Source: Patescibacteria group bacterium
GTDB taxonomy: Bacteria; Patescibacteriota; Patescibacteriia; UBA9934; GWF2-40-263
Assembly: GCA_018814025.1 (NCBI GenBank)
Contig: JAHJAM010000023.1
Coordinates: forward strand, 1,896-65,895
Reading direction: 5' to 3'
DNA length: 64,000 nucleotides
The translations under genes were made by a program, and so were the position numbers. Below are positions 3,467 to 64,000 of this stretch, one piece after another. How positions within the stretch are numbered: the stretch's first letter is position 1; each line of letters opens with the position of its first letter. The notes under the pieces were generated by a model. The model saw only the letters and a list, made by a program, of their open reading frames with translations, was not told the origin of the DNA and did not search any database.

Positions 3467-4906
3467 GTGATACACTATTTCCATATGACTTCCGCGGCCA
3501 AATTTTCCCAAAACATGACCATCCAAATCGCGGGTAAAATCGCGGCCGTTTTTGTCGGCTTGGGCATCATGGCCATCCTCACCCGCTCGCTTGGCCCCGA
3601 AGGTTTTGGCGAATACACCACGGCCGTCACCTTTCTGCAGTTATTTGGCGTAATCGTTGATTTCGGCTTAACTCTCACCTTGTTGGTCATGATTTCCGAA
3701 GTCGGCGCTGATCAAAATAAAATTACTAGTAACATTTTAACCCTGCGTCTTTTCTCCGGCTTGATTCTCTTCGCCTTGGCTCCTTTGGCCGTCCTGCCGT
3801 TTGCTTGGTCCGCCAACGTTAAGCTCGGCGTGGCCGTGGGCGCGGCCGCTTTCCTCTTTATGTCCGGCGCCACCATGCTGGTCGGCGTGTTCCAGCGCCA
3901 TGCTTGCCTGTGGCGGTCAGCCTTGGCGGAAATGTTGAACCGTTTTATCCTGATCGCTTTAGTGGCCTTGCTGGCTTACCTTAATTTGGGCGTGGTCTGG
4001 ATGATCGGCGCCATGATTGTCGCCAACCTTGCCTGGCTGGTTTCCATGATCTATTTCGCCCGGCCTTTCATCGCCATCCGGCCCCGATTTGATTGGCCGC
4101 TTTGGAAAAAAGTTATCTCCCGCTCCTGGCCCATCGCCGTTTCGATCATCTTCAACCTGCTTTACCTCAAGGGCGATATTCTTTTCCTGGCTTATTTCCG
4201 CGACGCCGCCGAAGTCGGTCTCTACGGCGCCGCCTACAAAATCATCGATGTCTTGACCGCCTTGCCGGTCATGTTCATGGGGCTTTTGCTCCCCATCTTG
4301 GTCAGCAGTTGGAGCGCCAATGATCGACCGGAATTCAAAAAACGTTTGGCCAGAACTTTTGACATCTTTATGATCAGCGCCATTCCGATTGTCATCGGCA
4401 CTCAAGCCGTGGCCGAGCCTCTGGCCCTCTTGTTTGCCGGCCCCGGCTTTGCCGCCACCGGCTCGGTTTTGCGCTGGCTGATTATTTCCATCATCGGGGT
4501 GTTCTTGGGCGCGCTTTACGGCCATACCGTTGTCGCTTTAAACAAACAAAAGCAAATGATCTGGGGCTATGTGGCCGTGGCCGTGCTTTCGATCATCGGC
4601 TATCTCTGGCTCATACCTTTATATGGGATGTACGGCGCCGCCTATGTCACGATTTTTTCCGAACTGCTCATCGCCTTGATTACTTTCTTGATGGTCTGGC
4701 GCGTTTCCCAAGCCCTACCCAGCTTATTAGTCACTCTGAAAGCCCTGGTTTCCGCGGCCATCATGTTTGGGGTGATCCAATCTCTGCCCAGCCTGCCGGT
4801 TCTGCTGACTGTCCTGATTGGCGCTTTGGTTTATCTGGGTTTGATGATCTTCTTGCGCGGCCTCAACCCCAAAGAACTCAAACTTCTGATCGCTGACCAA
4901 TCATAA
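3467..4906 (+). CDS. polysaccharide biosynthesis protein / Wzx-like oligosaccharide flippase (MOP superfamily)
   Basis: Polytopic protein of 12-14 TM helices of the expected length; native codon usage; the start could instead be 3485 or 3515. Confidence 0.6.
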   Translation: MIHYFHMTSAAKFSQNMTIQIAGKIAAVFVGLGIMAILTRSLGPEGFGEYTTAVTFLQLFGVIVDFGLTLTLLVMISEVGADQNKITSNILTLRLFSGLILFALAPLAVLPFAWSANVKLGVAVGAAAFLFMSGATMLVGVFQRHACLWRSALAEMLNRFILIALVALLAYLNLGVVWMIGAMIVANLAWLVSMIYFARPFIAIRPRFDWPLWKKVISRSWPIAVSIIFNLLYLKGDILFLAYFRDAAEVGLYGAAYKIIDVLTALPVMFMGLLLPILVSSWSANDRPEFKKRLARTFDIFMISAIPIVIGTQAVAEPLALLFAGPGFAATGSVLRWLIISIIGVFLGALYGHTVVALNKQKQMIWGYVAVAVLSIIGYLWLIPLYGMYGAAYVTIFSELLIALITFLMVWRVSQALPSLLVTLKALVSAAIMFGVIQSLPSLPVLLTVLIGALVYLGLMIFLRGLNPKELKLLIADQS

Positions 4907-13249: not shown

Positions 13250-13909
13250 CTACTTCTGATCGAACTCGCCACCCAGCAGGATCTCGTTATCCTTCTTGAT
13301 GACGGTCATCTCGTCCTTCATGACCTTGTTCTCCGTTTCGGCCGCCACCACTCGCTCTTCAAGCTTCTTAAGAGCTTCGGCACCGGCCGCTGACAGGCTG
13401 GCTGTTCCTGACTGGCCGGTTGGCGTATTGGCGAAACCTTGCTGAACCGGCATCGAAGTGCCGCCCAAAGCCGAAACCGGAACTGCCGTCGGCGCCTGCA
13501 CCCCATTCATCCTCATCATCTGATCCCGAAGGGCCATCTGAGAATCCATGAGGTAGATCTGATCGATCCCGCCGCCGAACATGTTACCCATGCCCGGCAT
13601 ACCCATCATACCCATACCATTGCCACCAGAGGCTGCCTGGACCACACTCGCGTCGCCTGTGGCGGCGCGCTTGCAGTTCCCGAAATTGTCGCAGTCCTCG
13701 ATCTGGGCGTTCTTGCCTTCTTCCATGGCCTTAGCCGTTGCCTTAGCCACCACCGTATCCGCGGTCTCGAACCCGTGGGTCTTCTTCTCTACCCTGACCT
13801 TGGCATGGGTCTCGGGATCTGTCTCGTACCGGACCTTGGACTCGGAAGTGTAAGCACATCCCGAGAGCATCGAAATCGCCAACGCGATCATCATCACTCG
13901 CTTCATCAT
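13250..13909 (-). CDS. Met/Gly-rich lipoprotein with C-terminal coiled coil
   Basis: Start placed at MMKRVMMIALAISMLSGC (lipobox LSGC); low-complexity GNGMGMMGMPGMGNMFGGG segment; C-terminal heptad-like KKLEERVVAAETENKVMKDEM. Confidence 0.45.
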   Translation of the reverse strand: MMKRVMMIALAISMLSGCAYTSESKVRYETDPETHAKVRVEKKTHGFETADTVVAKATAKAMEEGKNAQIEDCDNFGNCKRAATGDASVVQAASGGNGMGMMGMPGMGNMFGGGIDQIYLMDSQMALRDQMMRMNGVQAPTAVPVSALGGTSMPVQQGFANTPTGQSGTASLSAAGAEALKKLEERVVAAETENKVMKDEMTVIKKDNEILLGGEFDQK

Positions 13910-14243: not shown

Positions 14244-16643
14244 TTAAAAGGACTTGCAATTCTTATCGAACTTAGCCTTGGCCGCCTGATTGTTGGCCAT
14301 CAGCTCCTTCCAATTGGCACACAGAGCCTGCTGTCTGGGCGTGAGCTTCGGCTTTCCTCCCTGCTTCTTGCCGCCAGTCCCAATGGACCGAACAACCGGG
14401 CTTGCTCTGGGCAGATCGTTCTTGGAAACCTCGCCCCTGAACAGGAGCCAGCCCAGGAAGATGGCAACCAACATGGCCGATATTGTAGCGATCAAACCGG
14501 CCAAGTCAGGGCTGAAAGCGCTCAGCCCATCTTTGTACGAGCGTTGCATGCTTGCCCTGACAACCCCGCCGATCACCAAACAAATGATGATAGACAGAAT
14601 CACGAACAGTGCCTTACCACTGAGATCAGGCAGCTGATCAACGCCCATGATCGACAGAGAACTGTCGTTGATCATGTATTTCTGCTGGCCGGAAGGCGTC
14701 TCCACGGTCTTGACCAGAACTCCGGGCAAATTGACCATCGTGCCCTTGGGCAGGACCACGATCCCGGCCGCTCCGTCGCACGTGAAGTGCTCGACCAAAG
14801 CCTTTTTCTGCGCTTTAGCCTCAGTCTGCTTGCTGACGTTGTTCTTATTCTCCTCAGTCAACAAGCACTTGTCAGTCAAAGCCGCACTCAGCTTCTCACC
14901 GAAGACCTTGAGGGCCGGCTCGTAGCGCTGGCCCGGCAAAGGCACAACCAGGGTGTTAACCTGCTCGCCCTTGTCCGAAAACTCAGCCTGCCAAGCCACG
15001 GTCACGGGAAAAGCTGCACTCTCGCGCAAATCGTTGATCACGGCCGCTCGGCCGCACACCAACAACATCACGATCGCCAGCAAGATCGGCCAAGTGCCGA
15101 TCCGCTCTTCGCTTTTGGCCGAAAACAGCCAGGCCGAGAGCAGCAGCGCCGCCAACGTTCCCACCACTCGGCCGAACATCGCAAAGTCAGCCAAGTTAAT
15201 GAACACGCACAGGACCATGTTGAGCACGATCGCCCAAGCCAGACCCCGAGCGTAATTCACGCCCCAATGGAAATCTCGGCCGGCCGCGATTTCCGTGACT
15301 CGATCCAGCACTGCCTCCACAGCCTTCACCGGAAGCAGTAGCAAGGCAAGCGGCAGTCCCAGCCCCATGGCCAGCCCAATCGCCAAGACCGGGTAACCGA
15401 TCAGTGTGGCCAACCATGGCAAAGCCAGGAGCAACACCGCGATCAGCAAGCCCACAATGGACCGCTTGACCCAGGTCCAGATGAACTGTTTTCGGCGCGT
15501 GGCGACTTGGTCGCCTCCCTCATCGTCCGTAAACAAAGAGAGAATCGTCGATTTCCACTCCTGGAAGGGCGCCAATTCCGCGCCGCTCACATCAAGAGCG
15601 GTGATGTATTCGATCATGAACTCTTCCGGCATTGTGCCGTCAGGCTCAATTTTTCCCTCGAGCTGATGAGCCAGCTCTTCCAGGACCTGCACATTGCGAA
15701 TCGTCGCCGGATTATTGACCGCTTCCAAGAACTTCTCAAAGTTCTTGTACTTGACTGAGGTGAAGCTCAGCGAAGTCGTCCCGCGCATCCGACGTGCCAC
15801 CGACCTGATCACGGCCACGTGGACCTTGATCAACAGCGGACTGGCCTGGTCGAAATTCTTGACCGAAGGCTGGGTAGCGGTTGAAGCTTTCTTTTGAAGA
15901 TCAACCTCACCCACATTCCCCATGCACACCGGACAGAAGAATTTCTTCTGAGCCAAAGCGATGCCGATGGGATGAACTTCGACTTTCCAGAGCTTGCCTC
16001 CGACCAGCACATCCTTTTTTAACTTGTTGTCCCACCGTGTGGTCTGGGCATTCAGCTCCTCAAACATAGCCTCCGCACTCGCATACAGCTCGCACGGAAC
16101 CACCGGATTGCCATTCTCCTTCTTCATGACCGTCCCGTCGGCATTGAGCGCCACGCGATGCGCACCAGCCACCCGGGGGGCGACCGCTGCCATCTCGTAC
16201 TCGCCCACCGACGCGGCCGTCGTACCCGCGGCCGGCGTACCCAATTTCTCATCAACCGTCCGGTCAATGAGATCTTCGAGATCCGCATCCGCCAGCCCGT
16301 CCACAGCACCGAAGCACAGATGAGGAATCAGGGCCTTGATCACGGCTTTGGTCTTGGGCTTCAAGTAAGCGCTTGGAATAAAATCCACGAGCCACTCAGC
16401 CGCCCCGCCGACCGCTCGTCCGAACATCTCGAACCCCGGCAGTTTGCGCGCGCCATTGATCAACAGGAAGAAGGACTTGGCGAACTCGTTCTCATTCTGG
16501 CGCTTGGCCAGCTCCACCAGCAATGAACCGGCCACGTTCCGAGCCCCTTTCTCAAAGGTCTCGGTTCCGACCGCCTTGCCGGCAGTACCAAAAAAGTCTC
16601 CAAACCTGCTCAAATCCAAGTCTCCAAAAGTCACCTTGGCCAT
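14244..16643 (-). CDS. large polytopic membrane protein of unknown function (about 400-aa soluble N-terminal region with a CPVC motif, then two TM clusters and a basic C-terminal tail)
   Basis: 799-aa ORF with a good SD (GGAGGAAAGAG) before the ATG; GC-rich with AAG-preferring codon usage unlike the flanks; I recognise no known domain. Confidence 0.5.
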   Translation of the reverse strand: MAKVTFGDLDLSRFGDFFGTAGKAVGTETFEKGARNVAGSLLVELAKRQNENEFAKSFFLLINGARKLPGFEMFGRAVGGAAEWLVDFIPSAYLKPKTKAVIKALIPHLCFGAVDGLADADLEDLIDRTVDEKLGTPAAGTTAASVGEYEMAAVAPRVAGAHRVALNADGTVMKKENGNPVVPCELYASAEAMFEELNAQTTRWDNKLKKDVLVGGKLWKVEVHPIGIALAQKKFFCPVCMGNVGEVDLQKKASTATQPSVKNFDQASPLLIKVHVAVIRSVARRMRGTTSLSFTSVKYKNFEKFLEAVNNPATIRNVQVLEELAHQLEGKIEPDGTMPEEFMIEYITALDVSGAELAPFQEWKSTILSLFTDDEGGDQVATRRKQFIWTWVKRSIVGLLIAVLLLALPWLATLIGYPVLAIGLAMGLGLPLALLLLPVKAVEAVLDRVTEIAAGRDFHWGVNYARGLAWAIVLNMVLCVFINLADFAMFGRVVGTLAALLLSAWLFSAKSEERIGTWPILLAIVMLLVCGRAAVINDLRESAAFPVTVAWQAEFSDKGEQVNTLVVPLPGQRYEPALKVFGEKLSAALTDKCLLTEENKNNVSKQTEAKAQKKALVEHFTCDGAAGIVVLPKGTMVNLPGVLVKTVETPSGQQKYMINDSSLSIMGVDQLPDLSGKALFVILSIIICLVIGGVVRASMQRSYKDGLSAFSPDLAGLIATISAMLVAIFLGWLLFRGEVSKNDLPRASPVVRSIGTGGKKQGGKPKLTPRQQALCANWKELMANNQAAKAKFDKNCKSF

Positions 16644-25202: not shown

Positions 25203-26336
25203 TTATTGTTTGATCGGCATCACGATGTAAAGATATTCCTTTTTTTCTTCTTTTGGGGTGATCAAACACGGATTTGACGGATCGATCATTTCAAATAATA
25301 TCTTCTCAGTTGAAATTGCATTCAGTCCATCCAGCAAATATCGATAATTAACCGTCACATTATTAACTTCTCCGGTAATTTCCGCCGTGCAAGTCGCCAC
25401 ATTCTCACCCCGGTTATTGTCCACGGCTCTGATTGAAAATTCGCCTTTACTTGGCGCAATTTCCAAGGTCACATCAAAAAGTCCGGTCTTTGAAAACAAA
25501 CTTGCCGCTTTCACCGCTTTAATAAAATCTTCACGGTCAATCATCACGGAAGTTCGATATTGTTTAGGGATAATTTGCCGATAATCAGGGTAATTTCCTT
25601 CAATTATACGTGAAATTAACTCCACCGAACCATAATTGAATACCACCTGATTTTCGGACAAATTCATCACTATCTCGCCTGGTGCATCAACCGAATCCTT
25701 GAAAACCGAAAGAATGCGGCCAACCTCAGATAAAGCTTTGGTTGGTACGATCACTTCCATATCCTCAAGCGGCGCCTTGGCTAATGGCAAGGTTCGCTCG
25801 GCCAGTCGATAAGAATCAGTCGCCGCCAAAACAACCTGTCCCCCGCCGTCTTTTGTAAACCGCATAAAAACCCCGGTTAACTCCGGTCGAGATTCATTCA
25901 AAGCCGAAGCGAATAAAACTTGCGTCAAAGCCCGGCGAAAATCATCTGCTTTAATTTGATATGACTTACTCGCTTCGACGGTTGGGATCAAAGGAAACTC
26001 TGAGGCTGATACGCCATTAATCCGCGTCTTATGATTTCCACACACCACCCTCATACCGTCATCCTTAATTTCCATCTCCACAGTTTCATTCGGCAGCAAA
26101 GAAACATAGTCTAAAAATAATTTTGTCGGAGTCGTATATTCGCCCGGCGCATCAACCTTTCCCCTTACGCTGCAGCTGATCGCCGTTTCCAAATTGGTCG
26201 TAGTAAAACGAATATTTCCGCCTTCTGCCTTGATCAAAACATTCTGCAACACCGGTAAATTAACTCCTTTGTTAATTAAATGTCCGGTAACCGACAAACC
26301 TTGATATAAGTTTTCCCTTGTACAAGAAATTTTCAT
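25203..26336 (-). CDS. dnaN: DNA polymerase III beta sliding clamp
   Basis: 377 aa, MKISCTRENLYQGLS..., three-domain clamp length, directly downstream of dnaA. Confidence 0.85.
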   Translation of the reverse strand: MKISCTRENLYQGLSVTGHLINKGVNLPVLQNVLIKAEGGNIRFTTTNLETAISCSVRGKVDAPGEYTTPTKLFLDYVSLLPNETVEMEIKDDGMRVVCGNHKTRINGVSASEFPLIPTVEASKSYQIKADDFRRALTQVLFASALNESRPELTGVFMRFTKDGGGQVVLAATDSYRLAERTLPLAKAPLEDMEVIVPTKALSEVGRILSVFKDSVDAPGEIVMNLSENQVVFNYGSVELISRIIEGNYPDYRQIIPKQYRTSVMIDREDFIKAVKAASLFSKTGLFDVTLEIAPSKGEFSIRAVDNNRGENVATCTAEITGEVNNVTVNYRYLLDGLNAISTEKILFEMIDPSNPCLITPKEEKKEYLYIVMPIKQ

Positions 26337-26612
26337 ATTCTTTCCTCCCGCTTTTTATTATAATTTTTTCTTTATATATAACAGTAGTAACAATAAGGTA
26401 TGTGGATGGTTTGGATAACTCATTTTAACCCTGATTTTACAGGCTGTTCTTATTACGCAGATGTGCGCTTCTTTGTGTGGTGAACCTGCTTAGAATGAGG
26501 ATACTTTACTCTTTGATTCTGAACACAATATTTATCTACAGTTACCAAGTGTTTGTTCCACAGCTTTATTCACAATCGAGAGTTCACTTTTCCACAGTCT
26601 GATCACAGAAAT
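26337..26612. promoter_or_regulatory. putative oriC segment (dnaA-dnaN intergenic) with a DnaA-box cluster and an AT-rich unwinding element
   Basis: Near-consensus boxes TTATCTACA (26532), TGTTCCACA (26553), TTATTCACA (26568), TTTTCCACA (26588) and TGTGGATGG (26401); AT-rich run 26350-26395. Confidence 0.55.
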
Positions 26613-37560: not shown

Positions 37561-38244
37561 ATGAAACATCTCGCCATTATTTTAGACGGCAATCGCCGCT
37601 GGGCCAAAGCTCAAGGCTTGCCAACTTTCGAAGGCCATCGCCGCGGTTATGATCGCGTCAAAGAAATCGGCCTAGCCGCCCTGGAACGAGGCATCGAACA
37701 CCTCACGGTTTTTGCTTTCTCCACTGAAAATTGGAAACGTTCCGAAGAAGAAGTTGGTTACTTAATGGATCTCCTGCTTAAAGCCCTAACCAAAGACCTG
37801 GATTTCTACATGAAGCATCAGGTGCGTCTGAAAGTCATTGGCCGCCGAACCGGTCTTTCTGACAAAATTCAAGCCGCTATTGCCGAAGCTGAAGACAAAA
37901 CCAAAGGCAACACCGCCGGCCAAATCAATCTTTGCATCAACTACGGCGGCCGCGCCGAACTCGTCGATGCGGTCAAAGACATCGTCGCTTCCGGCGTAAA
38001 TCCGGAACAAGTCACCGAAGAACTTATTTCCTCCAAAATCTGGATGAAAGATATTCCGGATCCCGATCTTATTATCAGAACTTCCGGTGAACAGCGCACT
38101 TCCGGTTTCCTCACTTGGTCCGGCACTTACAGCGAAATTCTTTTTGTGGAAAAACCCTGGCCCGACTTCACAGTTGAAGATCTGGACGCCGCCATTGATA
38201 ATTTTTCAAACCGCGACCGCCGCTTTGGGGGAAACAGCAAATAA
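37561..38244 (+). CDS. uppS: isoprenyl transferase (undecaprenyl diphosphate synthase)
   Basis: HLAIILDGNRRWA and ENWKRS motifs. Confidence 0.85.
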   Translation: MKHLAIILDGNRRWAKAQGLPTFEGHRRGYDRVKEIGLAALERGIEHLTVFAFSTENWKRSEEEVGYLMDLLLKALTKDLDFYMKHQVRLKVIGRRTGLSDKIQAAIAEAEDKTKGNTAGQINLCINYGGRAELVDAVKDIVASGVNPEQVTEELISSKIWMKDIPDPDLIIRTSGEQRTSGFLTWSGTYSEILFVEKPWPDFTVEDLDAAIDNFSNRDRRFGGNSK

Positions 38245-38272
38245 AAAAACGAGCCGGCTGGCTCGTTTTTTA
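38244..38272. terminator. bidirectional terminator between uppS and the ComM/YifB gene
   Basis: AAAAAAACGAGCCGGCTGGCTCGTTTTTT. Confidence 0.6.
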
Positions 38273-39787
38273 GTCAAACAACTCCGCTGGCCGATAGCGC
38301 AGCGCCTCGGCAATATGAGTGGCCGTAATCATCTCCTCGCCTGCCAAGTCCGCGATCGTGCGCGCGACTTTTTTGACCCGTGTAAACCCGCGCGCGGACA
38401 GTCGTTGGGCATCCAGCGCCTGTTTTAAAAGAGCTGTCCCCTCTTTTTCTATCTCACAATGTTGTTTTAAACTCGAAGTCGGAATCTCCGCATTGGTTAG
38501 ATAATTTGTTTTCTTATACCTCTTTTCTTGGAGCCGGCGTGCCACCCCAACTCGCTGGCGAATTGTTTTTGAATCCTCCGCATCTTTTTCTCCCATCAAT
38601 TTATCAACTTCCACGTTCGGCACCTCGATTATCAAATCGAATCTGTCGAGCAACGGTCCGGAAATTCTTTTTCGATACTGACTAATATTTCGCGCCGAGC
38701 AAATACACGCTCGATGCGGATCACTCGCGTACCCGCACGGACAAGGATTCGTGGCCGCCATCAAAAGAAATCTTGAAGGGAATCGTACGCTCGCGGCCGC
38801 TCGCGACACATGAACGAAGCCATCTTCCAATGGCTGACGCAAATGTTCCAACACATGTCGAGAAAATTCCGCCAGCTCATCCAAGAATAAAACACCGCGA
38901 TGAGCTAACGTCACCTCGCCTGGCCGCGGCCAGGTTCCTCCACCTACTAAAGAGATAGCCGAACATGAATGATGTGGTGTGCGAAACGGTCGTTCCCTGA
39001 TCAAACCGCCCTGTATTGGCAAGGTTCCAGCCACGGACGCAATCGAAGTCACCTCCAAAGATTCTTCATGCGTGAGCGGTGGCAGGATTGAAGGTAAGGA
39101 TCGAGCCAGTAGCGTCTTGCCCGTCCCCGGCGGTCCCTTGAGCAAAACATTGTGTCCGCCCGCCGCCGCAATCTCCAGTCCCCTTTTTGCCTGTTCTTGG
39201 CCTTTTATGTGTTTAAAATCGATATATGAATCCAAACACACTTTATTCATTTTCACCGGAATCGCCTCCGGAATTGCGTTTATGTTTTTTAAGTGTTCAA
39301 CCACTGATAGCAGACTCGTCGCCGGCAATACTCGCAATTTCCCCACCGCCAAAGCCTCCTGAATATTTTGTTCGGGTACGAATATCGTCATGTATCCTAA
39401 ATTTTTCGCCATCAAAGCCGAAGTTAAAACACCGGTTACGGGACGAACTTGCCCGTCCAAAGCCAGCTCACCTAAAAATAAAGTTTTATCCAAATCCGTC
39501 CGATCAAATTCGCCTTGTGCCAATAAAATTGCCAAAGCGATTGGCAGGTCGAAGCTCGAACCTTGTTTCTTGATGTCTGCCGGCGCCAAGTTCACGGTCA
39601 CTCGCGTACGCGGAAAACTAAAGCGCGAATTTTTTATGGCCGCGCGAATCCGATCGCGCGCTTCTTTAACCGATACGTCCGGCAAACCCACAATATTAAA
39701 ATTCGGCATGCCAGGCGATACATCTGCTTCCACGGTAATTGGCCGAGCCTCTATCCCAATTACCGCGCTGGAAAGAATATTAAACAT
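38270..39787 (-). CDS. YifB/ComM-family Mg-chelatase-like AAA+ ATPase
   Basis: N-terminal Lon-like domain, Walker A GPPGTGKT and a ChlI-type C-terminus; start placed at MFNILSSAV. Confidence 0.8.
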   Translation of the reverse strand: MFNILSSAVIGIEARPITVEADVSPGMPNFNIVGLPDVSVKEARDRIRAAIKNSRFSFPRTRVTVNLAPADIKKQGSSFDLPIALAILLAQGEFDRTDLDKTLFLGELALDGQVRPVTGVLTSALMAKNLGYMTIFVPEQNIQEALAVGKLRVLPATSLLSVVEHLKNINAIPEAIPVKMNKVCLDSYIDFKHIKGQEQAKRGLEIAAAGGHNVLLKGPPGTGKTLLARSLPSILPPLTHEESLEVTSIASVAGTLPIQGGLIRERPFRTPHHSCSAISLVGGGTWPRPGEVTLAHRGVLFLDELAEFSRHVLEHLRQPLEDGFVHVSRAAASVRFPSRFLLMAATNPCPCGYASDPHRACICSARNISQYRKRISGPLLDRFDLIIEVPNVEVDKLMGEKDAEDSKTIRQRVGVARRLQEKRYKKTNYLTNAEIPTSSLKQHCEIEKEGTALLKQALDAQRLSARGFTRVKKVARTIADLAGEEMITATHIAEALRYRPAELFD

Positions 39788-39853
39788 AAAACTTCCACCG
39801 CTATTGGTGGAAGTCAATTTCTATTCATAACTTATCAGAAAAAAATTGCTTTG

Positions 39854-40360
39854 TCAAATATCATCCTCACCCGACTTCAGTTGTTTTCGTTGAGTCAAGA
39901 TCAATAACCCAGCCACACCGACCAAAATCACCACATCAGAAAAATTTATGGCCAAACGACTGAAAAACATAATGTAATCAACCGTGAACCCGTAAACCAG
40001 ACGATCATACATGTTTCCGGCGGCTCCGATAATGATAATCATCGCCATCAATGAGACTTTTGGTCGGTTTCCCCAATTCCGAATGATGATTTGGATCAAG
40101 AAAAAGCCGATAACCAATGAAATCAAGACAATCACCCACATTTTAAAAGGAATATCAAAGGCAATTCCGAAATTTTTGTGAATTGCCAAGGAAAAAAAAG
40201 CCGGATCAACAAGACTCCCCTCGTCGGGGAGTATTTTTAAGGCAGTGAATTTTACAATTTCATCGGCAATAACAATTAATACAAATATTATCGCATATCC
40301 GATGATGTTGATTTTCTTGATTAAACCTCTTGTGTCAAGGTTTTCTTGCATTTGATGCAT
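39854..40360 (-). CDS. lspA: lipoprotein signal peptidase II
   Basis: Four TM helices with the NxGxAF and GAAGNMYDR..G.V.D motifs. Confidence 0.75.
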   Translation of the reverse strand: MHQMQENLDTRGLIKKINIIGYAIIFVLIVIADEIVKFTALKILPDEGSLVDPAFFSLAIHKNFGIAFDIPFKMWVIVLISLVIGFFLIQIIIRNWGNRPKVSLMAMIIIIGAAGNMYDRLVYGFTVDYIMFFSRLAINFSDVVILVGVAGLLILTQRKQLKSGEDDI

Positions 40361-40695
40361 GAACTTGAAGTCGGACGAGCTAACAGGCGCTTTTCGTCAA
40401 TTTCTTGTTTACAGTACTTACAAATACCGTAAACCCCCTTCTCGAGCTGTCTAAGGGCTGATTCTACGTCTCTTAAGGCCTTTTCTAGCTCACTCTCCAA
40501 TGAAAGATTATTGCTAAATTGAGCTACTTCCGAGGCATTCTCATCTTCCTTATCACCCAGATTAGGAAAATCTGCATTAAAATCAGTTTCTGCTGCTTGG
40601 GGGTTTCGATGTGCGAATTTAGATAATTCTTGTTCTAAACGTGTTTTTTCCTCTGACAACCGCTCTTTCATTTGTTCTACAATTTGCTTATCCAT
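40321..40695 (-). CDS. DksA/TraR-family C4 zinc-finger protein
   Basis: Coiled-coil N-terminal part followed by C..C-x17-C..C (CKYCKQ...CIKCKK). Confidence 0.65.
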   Translation of the reverse strand: MDKQIVEQMKERLSEEKTRLEQELSKFAHRNPQAAETDFNADFPNLGDKEDENASEVAQFSNNLSLESELEKALRDVESALRQLEKGVYGICKYCKQEIDEKRLLARPTSSSCIKCKKTLTQEV

Positions 40696-41272
40696 AAAAT
40701 AAGAAATTACTTATTGTTTCCTTATCTTAGCATCGAATTACTTACAAGGCAATAGTTCGACAGGACAATTTAACAAATAAAAAAGGGTCTCATAGCCCCT
40801 AAATGAAGATTTTGTGGGTGAGACCCTAAGCTGTAGATCGTGGCTTGAGACATGCCGGGTTCTGGGCTCGAGGGAACCTCACAACTCGACATGCCTTTTG
40901 GCACATGCGATCTTGGCGTCAACTCAGCCCCTCTACCATTCAATGGTCGTCTTCGCGGATGCTCATCTGGCGAGCAACTTTTGTGCGAGCTGACCGAGGA
41001 TGGTGATTCTGTTTTATTTCTATTTTATGGTGAACAGTAAAGAGGTGGGGTATTTTCCGAAAGTCATGATGAACAGGTGTGGGGGACCTATTGCCGGACT
41101 AACCGGACACCTTCGGAAAACTTCCCAGAGTTGGGAACATGGAAAGAACGTTTACTCATCTATAATATCATGTTGAACACTAAATGTCAACGCTGAAATA
41201 CTAATCTAATATTAGGTAAAAACATCACTGAAAATAAAAAAAGTGTTCAAGAACACAATCCAATCTAAAAAG

Positions 41273-41312
41273 TTATCCACAATTATGTCGAATTATATAC
41301 AAGTTATCCACA
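41273..41312 (+). promoter_or_regulatory. pair of perfect DnaA boxes (TTATCCACA x2, direct orientation, 31-bp pitch)
   Basis: Exact 9-mers at 41273-41281 and 41304-41312 within an AT-rich noncoding stretch. Confidence 0.5.
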
Positions 41313-41313
41313 A

Positions 41314-42591
41314 TCAATTACATAGCAAAATCTTTGTATCAAATAGGCTATTTCGAATACCCACAGAGGAATAGGCCTCGGTGATCGGAAAAGCAATTTG
41401 CCAGTTTCGTGTATGCAAATTATTAGCCGACAGACCAACCCAGGAATCAACATTCATAAACCCACTCGTTCCACCACAAGGTGCCTCACGAAGAGAATTA
41501 TCCTCGCCGGTTAGCCAGAATCGAACTAACGCTTCTCGATTGCTGATTACCAACCGGCCACGATCATATCCAGAAAATAGATAATGTGTTGGATCAACCA
41601 AAACTCGCGACCATGGCACACCAGCTATCACCAATTCCTCAACCGATATTGCAGCCGGGTCAACCGAAATCTCTTGAGCTGTTGAATTATCAGACAAGAC
41701 GAAATCAGATATTCGCGGAGAATGTAAAGCTGCTGATAATTTGATTAGTTTCTTATGCATTTCCGGGTCATTTTCATCCTGATAACTGCTTATCAAGAAT
41801 CCAACCCCGTCTTCATCGTTTGAAAGCATTACAAGCTCAATGTTTTGTTCGAAAATACGTGTAAAACTAGCTAAATTTTGATCAAATTCTTCTATTAGTG
41901 GATAAACAGGCAAATTTGAATGAACTGAGAAGTTTGTCAAGAATGGCGTTGACATAATTCCAAACACGTCTTCAGGTATTGTTTTCCAAGGCAGTGCTGT
42001 CAAATCCGATTTTGGCAAAGAAATTTCCAAGTTATTTCCATCCCCATATATGTCACCTCTAATTAGAGGGTCATTCAATATCAATATCTGACCCAACAGC
42101 TTTGTTTCAAACATAAATGGAATATTCGGCAGGTTCCACCCCCTTTTGAGTTGAGTTGTGGAAAAAGGCATGATCTGATTGGCAAGAAAAAGATGATTTG
42201 GTCCGATTTCCCGCACGACAATCCCCTGAGCATCCAGTTCATCCCGGGGTAAGGTGTTTAATGACCCTCGAATTCCGACTGACATATTTCCGTCATTTTG
42301 GATATATATTGCCACTTCGCCCTGAGCAAATCCCACCAAGTCCGATATGGTTAAAGATTTTCCGGTTATTAGGGGAATATTGAGCAGGTTCTTCTCAATA
42401 ATAGGCCAAGTATTTCGATCCGGTGCCAGACGAATAATGGCTATGGTTCCATCCGGGACAATCTCGGAGATTGTTTGTCGAGAAAACCACCAAAAAGAGG
42501 CACAGTACGCCAACACTGTTAGCAATAGTGCCAAAAGCAATATCCAAACAACCCGCCGTGAACGGCGGGTTGTTTTATACGAATTACGCAT
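41314..42591 (-). CDS. hypothetical membrane-anchored protein
   Basis: Start placed at MRNSYKTTRRSRRVVWILLLALLL (TM helix) so that it does not overlap pnp; no family recognised. Confidence 0.4.
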   Translation of the reverse strand: MRNSYKTTRRSRRVVWILLLALLLTVLAYCASFWWFSRQTISEIVPDGTIAIIRLAPDRNTWPIIEKNLLNIPLITGKSLTISDLVGFAQGEVAIYIQNDGNMSVGIRGSLNTLPRDELDAQGIVVREIGPNHLFLANQIMPFSTTQLKRGWNLPNIPFMFETKLLGQILILNDPLIRGDIYGDGNNLEISLPKSDLTALPWKTIPEDVFGIMSTPFLTNFSVHSNLPVYPLIEEFDQNLASFTRIFEQNIELVMLSNDEDGVGFLISSYQDENDPEMHKKLIKLSAALHSPRISDFVLSDNSTAQEISVDPAAISVEELVIAGVPWSRVLVDPTHYLFSGYDRGRLVISNREALVRFWLTGEDNSLREAPCGGTSGFMNVDSWVGLSANNLHTRNWQIAFPITEAYSSVGIRNSLFDTKILLCN

Positions 42592-42613
42592 TGGAATATT
42601 CAGCTTTTGCACA

Positions 42614-44857
42614 TTATTTTCGGAATGGTTTCTTGAAGCGACTAAATCCTCCCTTTTTGTCATCGCGGTTATAAGGTTTCCGATCTCCACTCGGGGCTGC
42701 ATTAGCCGGCTTTTCCGGATAGACATTGCCCTCGGCTTGTTTCATGGAAAGGTTTACCCGTCCCTTGTCATCGATTTCGATCACCTTAACATTAACCTCA
42801 TCGCCAATTTTTACGATATCAGACACCTTTTCAACTCGCCAAGGAGCCAATTCACTGACGTGAACCATTCCATCCTTTTTTGGCAGGATTTCTACAAACG
42901 CACCAAAGTCCATTAACCGAACGACTTTGCCTTTATAGATTTCACCGACTTCGATATCTTTGACGATTCTTTCCACCCAAGCCTTGGCTTTATCAGCAGC
43001 TTCTCCACCGATTGAAGTAATCATAACCAATCCGCTATCTTCAATATCAATTGATTGTACGCCTGTGGTATCAATAATTTCATTAATCATTTTTCCGCCC
43101 GGACCGATTACTTCACCGATTTTTGCCGGATCAATCTGCACAGTAATAATGCGTGGAGCGTATGGTGACATCTCTGCGCGTGGTTCAGGAATCGTCTTCT
43201 GGATTACATCCAAAATTTCCATTCGCGCCTCGCGTGCTTGTTTGAAAGTTTGTTCCACGATTTCGCGGCTCAAGCCCTCGGTTTTGGTATCCATTTGAAT
43301 TGCAGTGATTCCCTCTCGGCTGCCCGCGATTTTGAAGTCCATGCCGCCTTTGCCGTCTTCCAGATCTTGAATGTCAGTCAGAACTTTCCAATCACCCTTA
43401 TCATTGGTGGCCACGCCCATGGCAATTCCGGCCACCGGCGTCTTAATCGGCACGCCTGCGTCCATCAAAGCCAAGGTCGATCCGCAAGTTGAAGCCATGG
43501 AACTGGATCCATTGGAGCCCATTGTTTCCGAGACCAAGCGGATGGTGTACGGGAAATCTTCTTTGCTTGGAATCATTGGCGCCAAAGCCTTTTCCGCCAA
43601 AGCGCCATGGCCGATATCGCGTCGGCTTGGGCCGCGCATGGGTTTAACTTCTCCTACTGAGTAAGGAGGAAAGTTATAGTGATGGAAAAAGCGCTTGGTG
43701 CCCATGAATTCCATTCCATCCATTGTTTGTTCATCGCCCGGCGCCCCTAAAGTCGTGACAGTTAACACCTGGGTCTCACCGCGCGAGAAAAGTCCGCTGC
43801 CATGCACTCTCGGCAACAATTGAACCTCACCAACCAGTTTTCGGATTTCTGTAATCTTTCGGCCGTCAACTCGTTTATCATTTTCAATAATCTCGCGAGT
43901 TACCTCGTCTTCCAGCACTTCAATCACCGTATCCAGGCCATAGCGCACCTCTTCGGGATCAACCCCTTGTTCTAATAAGAAAGCCTCTGTTCGCTTCTTC
44001 AATTCTGTCTTTTGTTGATAGCGTTCAGTTTTCGTTGCTTGTGGTTGTCCAAAAAACAATTCTTTCACTTGTGCCACAATAAACGGTCGAGCTTTCGCGG
44101 CAATCTCTTCTTTCTTAATAACCAAAGCTTTCTCTTCATCAGTCTTCGGGGCATTTAAGTCAACTTTTTCTTTACCCACTTCTTGACGGATTTTTTCAAT
44201 CAAAGCCACCGGTTCTTTAAGGTTTTCCATGCCGTACCAAAAAGCTTCCAGTACAGTATCTTCCGGAGCTTCATTGGCCCCGGCTTCAACCATGATGATG
44301 TTTTCTGAAGTTCCGGCAAAGGCTAGATCCAAAAGTGATTTTGCACGTTCTTCATAAGTTGGATTGATTATCCAGGCGCCATCAACTTGTCCGATTCGAA
44401 TGTCGGCGATTGGACCGTTCCAAGGGATTTGGCTTATGTGCAAAGCACAGCTCGCTCCAATCAAACCCAGGATGTCTGCATCATTTTCCCCATCAAACGC
44501 CAAGCAAGTCACAATTACTTGCACTTCATTTCGCATGCTTTGGTCGAACAAAGGGCGAATCGCTCGATCGATAAAGCGTGATGTCAAAATCGCCTCATCG
44601 ACGGCTCGGCCTTCGCGTTTCATAAACCGTGAGCCTTTAATGCGGCCGGCCGCGTACATTTTTTCTTCGTAGTCGACCATGAGCGGAAAGAAATCAACTC
44701 CTTCCCGAGCGCTTTCGCTCATTACCACTGTGGCCAAGACCACGGTTTCGCCATACTGCACCAAGCAGGCTCCATGAGCTTGCTCAGCGTACTTGCCTGT
44801 GGAAATGGTCAAAGTTTTGCCACCCCACTGGGTCTCAAATTTCTTGAGTTCTGTCAT
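42614..44857 (-). CDS. pnp: polyribonucleotide nucleotidyltransferase (PNPase)
   Basis: Two RNase PH domains, KH and S1 domains; start placed at MTELKKFETQWGG. Confidence 0.9.
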   Translation of the reverse strand: MTELKKFETQWGGKTLTISTGKYAEQAHGACLVQYGETVVLATVVMSESAREGVDFFPLMVDYEEKMYAAGRIKGSRFMKREGRAVDEAILTSRFIDRAIRPLFDQSMRNEVQVIVTCLAFDGENDADILGLIGASCALHISQIPWNGPIADIRIGQVDGAWIINPTYEERAKSLLDLAFAGTSENIIMVEAGANEAPEDTVLEAFWYGMENLKEPVALIEKIRQEVGKEKVDLNAPKTDEEKALVIKKEEIAAKARPFIVAQVKELFFGQPQATKTERYQQKTELKKRTEAFLLEQGVDPEEVRYGLDTVIEVLEDEVTREIIENDKRVDGRKITEIRKLVGEVQLLPRVHGSGLFSRGETQVLTVTTLGAPGDEQTMDGMEFMGTKRFFHHYNFPPYSVGEVKPMRGPSRRDIGHGALAEKALAPMIPSKEDFPYTIRLVSETMGSNGSSSMASTCGSTLALMDAGVPIKTPVAGIAMGVATNDKGDWKVLTDIQDLEDGKGGMDFKIAGSREGITAIQMDTKTEGLSREIVEQTFKQAREARMEILDVIQKTIPEPRAEMSPYAPRIITVQIDPAKIGEVIGPGGKMINEIIDTTGVQSIDIEDSGLVMITSIGGEAADKAKAWVERIVKDIEVGEIYKGKVVRLMDFGAFVEILPKKDGMVHVSELAPWRVEKVSDIVKIGDEVNVKVIEIDDKGRVNLSMKQAEGNVYPEKPANAAPSGDRKPYNRDDKKGGFSRFKKPFRK

Positions 44858-44992
44858 ATTTTTGGTCCTGTTGAAGCTCAAGAAGTCGAGATCTCTCTCG
44901 AAATCTTTCTGTCTCAACAGGACAGTTATTAATTAAGTGGCACATAAGTGCCAGATTTAGGTCAGGGATTAATCCCTGACCGGATCTGTTAC

Positions 44993-45553
44993 CTAAAATG
45001 TCATCCGTCTTTCTCTTGCCCCTTTGTTTTTATCACCGCCACCATCAGTTCGGGCGTTGGCTAAAATGTATTTTTTCGGTGCATCAGACAAGTTTGTATA
45101 ATGATCCACGACTTCGACTAATCTTGAAGAAGTGGTTTCGCGAAAGGCCATGACTTCCACGATCCGCCCGCGGTTTCTCACATATTCGACCAGCGGAATG
45201 TAATCCCCGTCCCCGGAAACCAGGACGATCACGTCCAGCATATCCAGCATGCGGATGATATCCACGGTCAGACCCACATCCCAATCCGCTTTTTTCTGGC
45301 CGGATAAATATTCCATCAATTCTTTCTCCTTGGTTTCAATGCCGGCTTTTTGCAAAGCTTCGAAAAAGGGCGATTCTTCATGGGTTTTGGTTCGCACCAC
45401 GTAAGCAATGGCTCGAATTAATCTTCGCTTGCCCACGGCATCAGCTAAGATTCCCTTAAAATTTACCTTGCGCTGAAAAAGGTGTCGCGCACTGTAATAC
45501 ATGTTTTGCGTGTCGATAAATACGCCCACGCGCTGCTCCGGATTCTGTATCAT
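44993..45553 (-). CDS. NYN-domain (LabA-like, PIN-like) protein
   Basis: VGVFIDTQNMYYS...IVLVSGDGDYIPLVEYVRNRG fits the NYN/LabA domain. Confidence 0.65.
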   Translation of the reverse strand: MIQNPEQRVGVFIDTQNMYYSARHLFQRKVNFKGILADAVGKRRLIRAIAYVVRTKTHEESPFFEALQKAGIETKEKELMEYLSGQKKADWDVGLTVDIIRMLDMLDVIVLVSGDGDYIPLVEYVRNRGRIVEVMAFRETTSSRLVEVVDHYTNLSDAPKKYILANARTDGGGDKNKGARERRMTF

Positions 45554-46560: not shown

Positions 46561-46956
46561 CTACGAAAGTAGTCTTCTGGTTCGGAGTACCAAACCGACC
46601 TTCCATCGTACTTGATCTCGGCGTTCTTTCGGCCCCTCCAAAGAGGTCTGGCACAAGCCCAAGGCCAAAAGTTCGCGATTATCGAGAAACCCATATTCAT
46701 CAATCGGATCTTTCGGATCCGAGAAAATGCTTTTGAGCACAGCTTCTGGCAAGTAGTCCGGCAGCTCGATTGATTCCAAGGTATGAAAGAAGCTCACTTG
46801 CTGTCCTTCGTCCAGCTCTGACAGGTTGAGCATTTGTATAAAAATCGGATTGCGCATCTCCCAAGTCTCTTTGCATTCATGCAAAAAGCTTTGCGGATTG
46901 CGACGATACCAAGCCGCATCGTGCTGGGACAGGTTAAGGTGCATGTTTTCCTCCAT
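46561..46956 (-). CDS. hypothetical small protein (divergent partner A)
   Basis: Start placed at MEENMHLNL; about 130 aa; promoter in the left arm of the 46986-47030 palindrome. Confidence 0.4.
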   Translation of the reverse strand: MEENMHLNLSQHDAAWYRRNPQSFLHECKETWEMRNPIFIQMLNLSELDEGQQVSFFHTLESIELPDYLPEAVLKSIFSDPKDPIDEYGFLDNRELLALGLCQTSLEGPKERRDQVRWKVGLVLRTRRLLS

Positions 46957-46969
46957 TGAAGAACAGCGA

Positions 46970-47046
46970 AATCTATCATTTAATTGCGGTTTTGTCAAGC
47001 CTCTGACCGTCTGGGGCTTGACAAAACCGCCAAAATCAACTACTAT
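46970..47046. promoter_or_regulatory. divergent consensus promoters embedded in a perfect 45-bp palindrome
   Basis: GCGGTTTTGTCAAGCC-N13-GGCTTGACAAAACCGC (46986-47030); plus strand TTGACA(47018)-N17-TACTAT(47041); minus strand TTGACA(46993-46998)-N17-TAGATT(46970-46975). Confidence 0.55.
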
Positions 47047-47071
47047 CATCAGTTCAATCGTGGAGGAAGAA

Positions 47072-47500
47072 ATGGAAATGGACACCAACCAACCCATTAA
47101 CCTGTTTTCTCACCCCAGGTTCGATCAGAAATTCTTTGGCAAGCTGCACAGCATCTTACAGATCCACAATCCGCTTGAAGGTTGTTGGGCCCAGGCTCCA
47201 GTCGCGGCCGCTCGGATTACGCTCGAGCTGATCGCGGATGCCGAGTTGCCGCCTGAGTGGCTCAAGAATCATCTCACTATCTGGCTTATCGGCCACGGTT
47301 GTGACGTGATTCTGACCATTCAAAACATTGTGGATAAGCGCTGGGGCGAAGATAGGTATTTCCATCTTCAGGTCACAACCTGGCCGACGCACCCCATCTC
47401 TCTGGATCAGTTCCAGGACATCCACCTAGTATCATCCAGCGGCCAATGCTGGTCATCCCCCCTTGCAACTTTACGGATTCAGAAAGTCAGCCACGGCTAA
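47072..47500 (+). CDS. hypothetical small protein (divergent partner B)
   Basis: GGAGG six nt upstream of ATG 47072; about 142 aa; weak resemblance to partner A around an ELP..EWL segment. Confidence 0.45.
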   Translation: MEMDTNQPINLFSHPRFDQKFFGKLHSILQIHNPLEGCWAQAPVAAARITLELIADAELPPEWLKNHLTIWLIGHGCDVILTIQNIVDKRWGEDRYFHLQVTTWPTHPISLDQFQDIHLVSSSGQCWSSPLATLRIQKVSHG

Positions 47501-62836: not shown

Positions 62837-62837
62837 G

Positions 62838-62868
62838 TAAAAACACCAGCTTAGCTGGTGTTTTTACT
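62838..62868 (+). terminator. intrinsic terminator after tRNA-Ala (contains a CCAGCTTAGCTGG core)
   Basis: AAAAACACCAGCTTAGCTGGTGTTTTT. Confidence 0.6.
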
Positions 62869-63318
62869 TATCAGCAAAATCTGAACCGTTGATGGGAAAA
62901 GAAAATATCTAAACCGTAACAATATGTATATATTGAGAAACAATAACGAATGAGTGAATACATCCGCAAACAAAATATAGTTTTGTATTCGCAACCAAAT
63001 CATCGATTACTCAACTCAGCAACTTATCAGTAACCGACATATTGGTCGCAATTCAATCAGCCGATCCTCATAAATGATTTGAAAAAAGGGAATCGAGGTG
63101 CAAATTGAATATATAATAGAACAATATAGATTGTCTAAACTAGTCTAGACAAACAAATTTTTTGGGGATAAGTCAGAGTTTTTTTCAATTTTATAGCATT
63201 TTATGTCAAATTTGAGACTTATCCACACCAGTATATCTACATTTTTTAGCTAATCTTAGCATAAAAACAACTTGACGACAATTCTTATTCATGGTATTTT
63301 GCGTGCAGGTCGAATTCT

Positions 63319-64000
63319 ATGCGTTTTTCAATTTTCACGATCATCTTTGTGGGGATCTTGACCAGTGCCTTCGTCGCACACGGTCAGATGTCTTCTACAA
63401 ATTTTGAAATCCAATGGGATTCTGTGGGAATTGGCGGAGCCGATACGAGTAGCTCTACCAACTATGAACTTCGCGATACTGGCGGCAATTCATCAATAGG
63501 AAATTCCTCAAGCACTTCCTATCAAGTTGCCTCCGGATATCGAGCCGGCATTTTCGATCAGATCATTACATTTGATGTATTCGCTCAAAACAATGCTTCA
63601 GAGCGAGCAGCTACTGGTCTGTCCGGCACCACAGTCACCACTTCAACTGCCGGATTATCGATCGGCGACCTGGTAGTTGTTGTCCAAGACAAAGGCGCAA
63701 CCCAAGTTTCAGGAATTGGCCGCATCGCTTCAATCGGTGCTGGAACCATCATCCTGGATGAGCTTAAAGACAGCGGCACAACTCCAGTGTTCGACGGTTC
63801 CAATGATTATGTCTACCGGTTGTCCGGCACCTCTGCCAATCTGGGTGACATTGTCACCTCAGCCATTAGCACTTCTGTCATCGGTTTTGATGTATCCGCG
63901 GATTTGGATGGGGGATACGTGATTCAGGTTTATGAAGATGGCAATCTGCGCGATGGAGCCAATGATATAAATGATGTAGCTGACACGGCCGTCTCTACCG
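63319..64000 (+). CDS. secreted Ser/Thr/Gly-rich surface protein (5' part; runs off the window end)
   Basis: ATG at 63319 with signal peptide MRFSIFTIIFVGILTSAFVAHG; frame 1 stays open to position 64000; not in the supplied ORF track because no stop lies within the window. Confidence 0.5.
   Translation, partial: MRFSIFTIIFVGILTSAFVAHGQMSSTNFEIQWDSVGIGGADTSSSTNYELRDTGGNSSIGNSSSTSYQVASGYRAGIFDQIITFDVFAQNNASERAATGLSGTTVTTSTAGLSIGDLVVVVQDKGATQVSGIGRIASIGAGTIILDELKDSGTTPVFDGSNDYVYRLSGTSANLGDIVTSAISTSVIGFDVSADLDGGYVIQVYEDGNLRDGANDINDVADTAVST

Follow-up and report, generated by a model that had tools for sequence, protein, structure and literature searches.

The 64-kb stretch of patescibacterial DNA analyzed here (the window) contains an intergenic gap of 618 bp (40696-41313) with a group of DnaA boxes at its upper edge and an RNA gene between the boxes and a downstream gene for a DksA/TraR-type zinc-finger protein (Table 1). 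On the other side of the boxes lies a 470-aa ORF, followed by pnp, the gene for PNPase. The ORF has no Pfam match and is weakly conserved (23-31% identity to its counterparts in the five closest loci); a pattern scan of genome contigs returned no relatives, and the exact protein has no database record. The distance from the boxes to dnaA is 13.25 kb, in agreement with the 13 kb given by the first-pass annotation of this DNA. The dnaN protein of the window is also encoded on a Logan contig from metagenome run SRR2540949.

Table 1. Features of the window discussed in the text, in order of position.
Feature	Position	Strand	Remarks
dnaN	25203-26336	-	Pfam
dnaA	26613-28019	-	Pfam
comM-like	38270-39817		ComM-like Mg-chelatase ATPase; after lspA
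lspA	39854-40360		after dksA
dksA	40321-40695	-	DksA/TraR-type zinc-finger gene; downstream of the RNA
Intrinsic terminator of the RNA	40775-40827	-	stem AGGGUCUCA/UGAGACCCU, conserved C-rich loop (CCCACAAAAUCU), then UUUUUU
Structured non-coding RNA gene, ~380 nt	40778-41155	-	ends inferred: 5' from the -10, 3' from the terminator
Central RNA domain	40923-41053	-	matched by covariance model R1, 93 bits
Sigma-70-type promoter	41162-41190	-	11 of 12 consensus positions plus TG; conserved in relatives
Palindrome GTGTTC-AA-GAACAC	41243-41256		between boxes and promoter
Box c, exact TTATCCACA	41273-41281	+	20-bp pitch from box b
Box b, TTATATACA	41293-41301	+	fits TTATNCACA with one mismatch
Box a, exact TTATCCACA	41304-41312	+	reads TGTGGATAA on the RNA-sense (minus) strand
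470-aa ORF	41314-42726	-	upstream of the boxes; stop codon abuts box a
pnp (PNPase)	42614-44917		beyond the 470-aa ORF

For comparison we used a set of 80 related pnp loci, amounting to 1.33 Mb and all from genomes of the CPR/Patescibacteria type; the closest PNPase relatives come from Candidatus Uhrbacteria MAGs (67-69% identity). The order nyn-pnp-(~1.9 kb)-dksA-(lspA)-comM can be recognized in about 50 of the 80 loci. The succession of NYN-domain protein, PNPase, variable ORF, RNA, DksA-like, LspA and ComM-like protein, seen at 37561-45553 in the window and across loci L002-L081, spans a wide range of CPR lineages, and tRNA-Arg(TCT) and tRNA-His recur a few kb upstream of it.

The first-pass annotation had described two perfect DnaA boxes at the site, in direct orientation with a 31-bp pitch. 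Both are present as exact copies of the 9-mer at that spacing (boxes a and c), but the count of two was incomplete: a scan in which up to two mismatches were allowed identified box b between them, and three boxes in all at this tolerance between 41100 and 41340. Box b is separated by 2 bp from box a (an 11-bp pitch, as in a "double box") and by 11 bp from box c, and the array thus consists of three boxes in one orientation with pitches of 11 + 20 = 31 bp, or approximately one and two helical turns. The first box after the stop codon of the 470-aa ORF is box a, which starts 1 nt past it. Exact copies of the 9-mer occur four times in the 64-kb window, the other two being at 47329 (-) and 63219 (+), while 0.35 ± 0.54 are expected from dinucleotide-preserving shuffles, none of 100 of which reached four; boxes with one mismatch number 30 across the window versus 12.5 expected. 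The earlier statement that no perfect box accompanies dnaA also held: the gene is flanked only by one-mismatch boxes, both in the dnaA-dnaN spacer (26410-26596) and upstream of the gene (28071 and 28235).

The sequence between the boxes and dksA had been called a noncoding, AT-rich region of roughly 600 bp. The length is right, but the AT-rich composition is confined to the 157 bp beside the boxes (27% GC upstream of the RNA start); the next 382 bp, from promoter to terminator, have 48% GC and represent a structured RNA gene. Since this gene fills the gap from promoter to terminator, the supposed noncoding region is mostly an RNA gene. Its promoter is composed of a -35 TTGACA (41190-41185), a 17-bp spacer and an extended -10 TGaTATTAT ending at 41162, and the exact boxes c and a are located 91 and 122 bp, respectively, upstream of the start of the -35. 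The palindrome between boxes and promoter is an inverted repeat of the type TTGAACA-N-TGTTCAA (N(2-7)), which is also present upstream in L002, L003, L009, L043, L059 and L081, and a half-site of it, (G/T)GTGTTCAA, falls inside the promoter spacer at approximately 41173-41180. The repeat looks like the operator of a putative dimeric regulator, and the palindrome together with its half-site points to a possible second regulator at this promoter besides DnaA. In six more divergent loci (L043, L081, L055, L045, L019, L015) a box, an AT-rich tract, a TTGAC promoter, the RNA and a terminator follow each other in the same order.

The RNA of approximately 380 nt has a minimum free energy z-score of -5.2. 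We aligned nine homologues over their full length (the window, L002-L007, L012 and L041). The conserved parts are the block GUUCUUUCCA, a hairpin GGGAAGUUUUCCGAAG...CUUUCGGAAAA with the loop GUCCCCAC, a helix GUCGAGUU...AGAACCCG, a long-range helix CUCUuUACUG/..GGUAGAG, and an A-rich strand that reads AAAACAAAAACAAAA in relatives, among them the six divergent loci listed above. The RNAalifold consensus comprises 66 pairs, in 50 of which at least one sequence has changed on both sides with pairing retained. Paired cells amount to 83.7% of the total, compared to 43-50% when the 3' partners are slid by one to three columns, and the covariation score is 0.555, compared to 0.14-0.19 with slid partners; none of 500 column shuffles reached the observed values. 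A covariance model that covers the central domain (R1, built from A2) retrieves its own seeds and adds L024, L061, L069, L059, L055, L039, L010, L013 and L060, with L051 as a weaker match; its matches are always on the same strand as pnp and downstream of it. A search with nhmmer alone was less sensitive than the covariance model, adding a single locus.

This combination of a covarying structure, a promoter and terminator of its own, and no conserved ORF is what is generally taken to characterize a structured non-coding RNA. No Rfam 15 family, including tmRNA, RNase P, 6S, SRP and the riboswitches, reached its gathering threshold in the window or in seven of the loci, and a search of three homologues at E≤10 returned only noise; ARAGORN called no tmRNA in the window, nor in any of 52 loci. 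A small protein gene in the same block was considered and discarded: there is no long or conserved ORF in the RNA region, and by inspection of the window against L002 the short ORFs present are not conserved in frame. A likeness to RNase P, suggested by eye from CAGAACCCGGCAUG and GGGAAGUUUUCCG, which recall the P4 strands, was also discarded, since these segments pair locally rather than with each other and are not kept in relatives. Finally, the RNA is not a leader or attenuator of dksA, because in several loci dksA has its own promoter past the RNA terminator, and because L060 has the RNA without dksA. The RNA family is absent from Rfam 15 and apparently undescribed; our search of the literature on DnaA boxes, origins and non-coding RNAs of the CPR, which was incomplete, such that an earlier description is possible, retrieved nothing on either the array or the RNA. 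The C-rich loops and the A-rich strand suggest that it may be a trans-acting or protein-sequestering regulator.

The association of the boxes with this RNA gene is conserved. The 80 loci contain 85 exact boxes versus 10.6 expected from a first-order Markov model, and 69 of these are within the 3.5 kb after pnp, which represent 19% of the sequence, while 16 are scattered in the other 81%; this enrichment ignores the phylogenetic relatedness of the loci, although the flanking sequence is not alignable. The first-pass annotation had held that boxes occurring at similar density throughout would make the pair unremarkable; in the related loci they are concentrated in the homologous interval. In L002 and L003 the same pair of boxes is found at -122 and -91 with respect to the -35, with a different sequence in the 22 bp between them. 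More generally, at least one exact box is present 58-132 bp upstream of the -35 in every one of the 25 loci in which the promoter could be located by pattern, in most cases reading TGTGGATAA on the RNA-sense strand. Among neighbouring boxes of the same orientation (TTATNCACA, at most one mismatch) the pitch is 11 bp in 7 cases and 20 bp in 10. The number of boxes varies from one to five across relatives, and so does their orientation (R-R-R, R-F-F, or a single box). The distance to the -35 varies as well, and the helical phases that it implies are spread out, with no clear preference.

The covariance model leads to the same association from the side of the RNA: 17 of its 18 matches at E<0.05 are preceded by an exact box, located 120-300 nt before the start of the domain (P ~5e-35 in a naive binomial estimate that ignores relatedness). 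As an example, in L060 dksA is replaced downstream by a large ORF on the opposite strand, while box, promoter and RNA persist, indicating that the boxes travel with the RNA gene; the box there starts 1 nt past the stop codon of a 455-aa ORF, like box a of the window. In L006 (~13690-13720), L007 (~14410-14445) and L008 (~13560-13590) a terminator-like hairpin followed by a T-run is found between the boxes and the RNA promoter, and the boxes of these three loci would therefore be in the 3' UTR of the upstream gene.

The DnaA protein of the window contains the motifs AFPRQ, SYPTIG and GGRDHTTAMHA, as seen by alignment to the E. coli (1J1V) and B. subtilis (8BTG) structures, and these contain the base-contact residues of DnaA listed in PMC2533591. 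The DNA-reading residues in the DnaA of this organism are canonical, and the canonical box is therefore its expected high-affinity site.

These results can be interpreted in terms of control of the RNA promoter. The reading toward which we lean is that the site is a conserved DnaA operator array in the control region of a strongly promoted structured RNA gene of ~380 nt between pnp and dksA. Of the roles that the first-pass annotation had offered for the boxes, a DnaA-regulated promoter fits best with their position and with its retention in all 25 loci; what had been missed is the target, a conserved structured RNA. As judged from sequence, the boxes most likely tie expression of this RNA to DnaA and do not mark a replication origin. 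According to this hypothesis, DnaA would occupy the three boxes cooperatively and on the same helical face; either by itself or with a protein recognizing the TTGAACA/TGTTCAA palindromes, it would modulate the RNA promoter, and the level of the RNA would then follow the amount or the nucleotide state of the replication initiator. Binding of DnaA at this site in vivo, its effect on the promoter and the sign of that effect are what we infer from this arrangement. Because the promoter is already close to consensus, an effect that damps or represses it seems likelier than an activating one. The location of the boxes counts to some extent against the operator reading: their centres are ~120-155 bp upstream of the inferred transcription start, which is far for a direct contact with RNA polymerase, and they do not overlap the promoter, where DnaA usually represses. 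Their variable distance to the -35 without clear phasing counts against it as well, and so do the hairpins of L006, L007 and L008, which would suit an element that forms the end of the upstream gene. It is also conceivable, although we regard it as a tentative extension, that throughout the Patescibacteria concerned (Uhr-, Falkow-, Komeili-, Kerfeld- and Buchananbacteria and their relatives) the promoter of this ~380-nt RNA is under direct control of DnaA, as part of a core circuit of replication coupling. If true, a link between DnaA and an RNA would couple replication to regulation at the level of RNA or of RNA polymerase in these minimal genomes.

The main rival reading, which we consider possible though distinctly less probable than a promoter operator, is that the boxes form a titration or reservoir site that retains DnaA close to the dnaA region and thereby buffers initiation, with the promoter being close by incidentally or because the site is a convenient non-coding spot. 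The boxes are of high affinity, are deeply conserved and do not overlap the promoter, and in the window only 13 kb separate the site from dnaA; a location close to oriC is usual for the titration sites of E. coli and Bacillus (PMC2533591, PMC12371093). Like datA of E. coli, the array also has boxes of high affinity at a distance from oriC, where they could sequester DnaA. On the other hand, each locus has one to three good boxes, compared to at least four dense ones at the stable sites of B. subtilis (PMC2533591), and datA extends over ~1 kb and comprises five boxes plus an IHF site that is essential (PMC12371093), none of which is found at this array: there are only three boxes, and the IHF site WATCARNNNNTTR has no match on either strand of 40696-41330. 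Furthermore, a pure sink for DnaA needs no tie of 58-132 bp to one promoter in all 25 loci, and need not follow the RNA where dksA has been lost, as in L060.

A much less probable reading is that DnaA acts as a roadblock or insulator past the upstream stop codon, halting read-through from the pnp operon and shielding the RNA promoter. DnaA-box complexes can reportedly block an elongating RNA polymerase (Schaefer and Messer, at asnC/mioC), and in the window and in L060 the first box begins 1 nt past the stop codon with no intrinsic terminator between the two. However, an intrinsic terminator precedes the boxes in L048 and L073 and follows them in L006-L008, and thus a roadblock is not generally needed in loci that nevertheless keep their boxes.

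We regard as quite improbable that the array is a DARS-like element, which reactivates DnaA by stripping it of ADP. Its closely spaced, intergenic and promoter-adjacent boxes are reminiscent of DARS1 (uvrB) and DARS2 (mutH). The DARS core is said by Fujimitsu and Katayama to have three boxes in a specific mixed orientation, and there is no such core with fixed mixed orientation and spacing here: the array of the window has a single orientation, box number and orientation vary among relatives, and an IHF site is missing. E. coli DARS2 does have a double box as well (PMC11317965). With two to three boxes per site, no IHF consensus and no DARS-type core, the anatomy required by the earlier suggestion of a datA/DARS-like locus is lacking, although a function of that kind is conceivable.

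Equally improbable in our estimate is that the 9-mer is read by another, lineage-specific protein, or kept for a reason unrelated to binding, its match to the DnaA box being a coincidence. The second conserved palindrome does suggest that at least one other factor acts at the site; but the 9-mer equals the high-affinity box that is universal to DnaA, and it varies in just the ways that DnaA tolerates (TTATNCACA), domain IV of DnaA is canonical, and the dnaA-dnaN spacer contains the same family of motifs.

The possibility that the array is part of the true origin, raised in the first-pass annotation together with a GC-skew inflection as the means of checking it, was tested in the window and in the relatives. 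On the + strand the window has a negative GC skew from end to end, and the cumulative curve decreases monotonically until it reaches its minimum at 63881, at the right edge; within the 64 kb there is no inflection at 41.3 kb, nor at dnaA/dnaN. The skew is -0.121 in the 10 kb to the left of the site and -0.076 in the 10 kb to its right. Of the 43 related loci that extend for 4 kb or more to either side of the homologous site, 41 have no switch there, the skew being of the same sign or negligible; in several relatives it is strong to the left and to the right alike (e.g. +0.23/+0.22, +0.18/+0.16), and in others negative on both sides. Since the sign is the same on the two sides and differs from relative to relative, the locus can be on either replichore and is neither origin nor terminus. 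The orientation of the boxes is also opposite to that of oriC with respect to the AT-rich tract, which in the window is 3' of the boxes read as TGTGGATAA, while in E. coli oriC the 13-mer DUE is 5' of the box R1 read in the same way (the oriC sequence used for this comparison is 100% identical in E. coli genomes). By inspection the sequence contains no tandem run of DnaA-trios. Overall, a skew change, a dense array of mixed boxes (typically at least five) and a correctly placed DUE with trios, as at an oriC, are all missing.

Thus, an origin or unwinding module displaced from dnaA, with the 27%-GC tract as DUE and the strong promoter helping, is the least probable of the readings and largely refuted: that perfect boxes adjoin an AT-rich tract, and that the absence of a skew switch at dnaA-dnaN as well would allow an origin away from dnaA, is outweighed by the lack of a sign change both in the window and among the relatives (41 of 43), the two to three boxes, the missing trios and the tract on the wrong side compared to E. 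coli. By GC skew the origin of the window seems to be neither at dnaA nor at the array; it appears to be located to the right of ~58-64 kb, at least 30 kb from dnaA. An extension of the right end toward the skew minimum was sought, and the sole contig found ends at ~62.8 kb. The result cautions against relying on perfect DnaA boxes as a marker of origins in the CPR/Patescibacteria. The dnaA-dnaN spacer (26337-26612) has about six imperfect boxes (TTTGGATAA, TTATCTACA, TTATTCACA, TTTTCCACA and others) and an AT run beside dnaN, and looks like a classical oriC, yet without a skew switch.

As for systems already described, the array is akin to known clusters of DnaA boxes outside the origin, and by its anatomy is not an oriC, a datA or a DARS. 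The DnaA of B. subtilis uses such clusters to regulate sda, ywlC and yydA (Ishikawa et al. 2007, PMC2533591). The similarities to these clusters include boxes of the TTATNCACA type, an intergenic location near but outside the origin, conservation among related species and the same base-contact residues in DnaA. The B. subtilis clusters act on adjacent promoters, either positively or negatively; from its sequence alone the array may be likened to them in this respect. There are also differences: the B. subtilis clusters have 4-10 boxes rather than two to three, the target here is a non-coding RNA gene, and the conservation is wider (PNPases with 50-69% identity). At E. coli promoters, such as those of purH, polA, mutH/DARS2 and mioC, the sites preferred by DnaA are double boxes with 2-3 bp in between (Stringer et al. 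2024, PMC11317965). The 2 bp between boxes a and b correspond to this stable-binding spacing, and the 11-bp pitch recurs in the seven neighbouring pairs of the relatives; unlike the E. coli sites, the array has a third box at a 20-bp pitch that is equally conserved, and is ~90-120 bp upstream of the -35 rather than at or over the promoter. With the basal unwinding system of oriC (boxes, DnaA-trios and an AT-rich DUE) the array shares perfect boxes beside an AT-rich stretch, and differs from it in lacking a skew switch and a trio array, in the opposite orientation of the boxes to the AT tract and in having too few boxes. A parallel in concept, namely a non-coding RNA that is transcribed under a master regulator of replication or of the cell cycle, is the cell-cycle-controlled CcnA of Caulobacter. 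It is described as tied to CtrA and GcrA, located at the origin and much smaller in scope (PMC8959179), and has no relationship in sequence or structure with the RNA described here.

While DnaA boxes outside the origin are known, few cases are conserved so deeply, with the exact 9-mer retained between genomes whose PNPases are only 50-69% identical. What is new is this depth of conservation, the fixed link to a promoter, and a target RNA family absent from Rfam 15. The CPR/Patescibacteria are uncultivated, with genomes of ~1 Mb and very few regulators, and to our knowledge almost nothing is known of how replication or gene expression is controlled in them. In this context the locus represents a testable regulatory module, consisting of a box array, a palindromic operator, a strong promoter and a structured RNA, and the RNA is a new family to model and search for.

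A few other sites were noticed in the course of the analysis. The exact box at 47329-47337 (-) is within overlapping ORFs without a Pfam match (46826-47500, +), with no promoter context seen, and may be a chance occurrence or a cryptic site. The remaining exact box of the window (63219-63227, +) is located with a one-mismatch box (63163-63171, -) in a gap of 32% GC (62837-63319) past tRNA-Arg(CCT) and tRNA-Ala, with a promoter TTGACG-17-TGgTATTTT 45 bp further downstream; exact boxes adjoin tRNA-Arg(CCT) also in L009, L015, L017 and L021, and this gap is a candidate for a second conserved DnaA site or for the origin. In L012 a perfect palindrome, TGTGGATAAAGGGGTC-A-GACCCCTTTATCCACA (3646-3678), is 6 bp upstream of a TTGACA promoter predicted to drive a terminator-ended transcript of ~110 nt ahead of tRNA-His, and the palindrome coincides with the point (3713) at which the cumulative skew of that locus is lowest. 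In L073 (13910-14500) a DnaA box overlaps a promoter, and after the box comes an element that contains a T-loop-like GTTCGAATCC and has complementary ends of 14 nt (GGAGAGCAGGATTC...GAATCCTGCTCTCC); ARAGORN calls it neither a tRNA nor a tmRNA.
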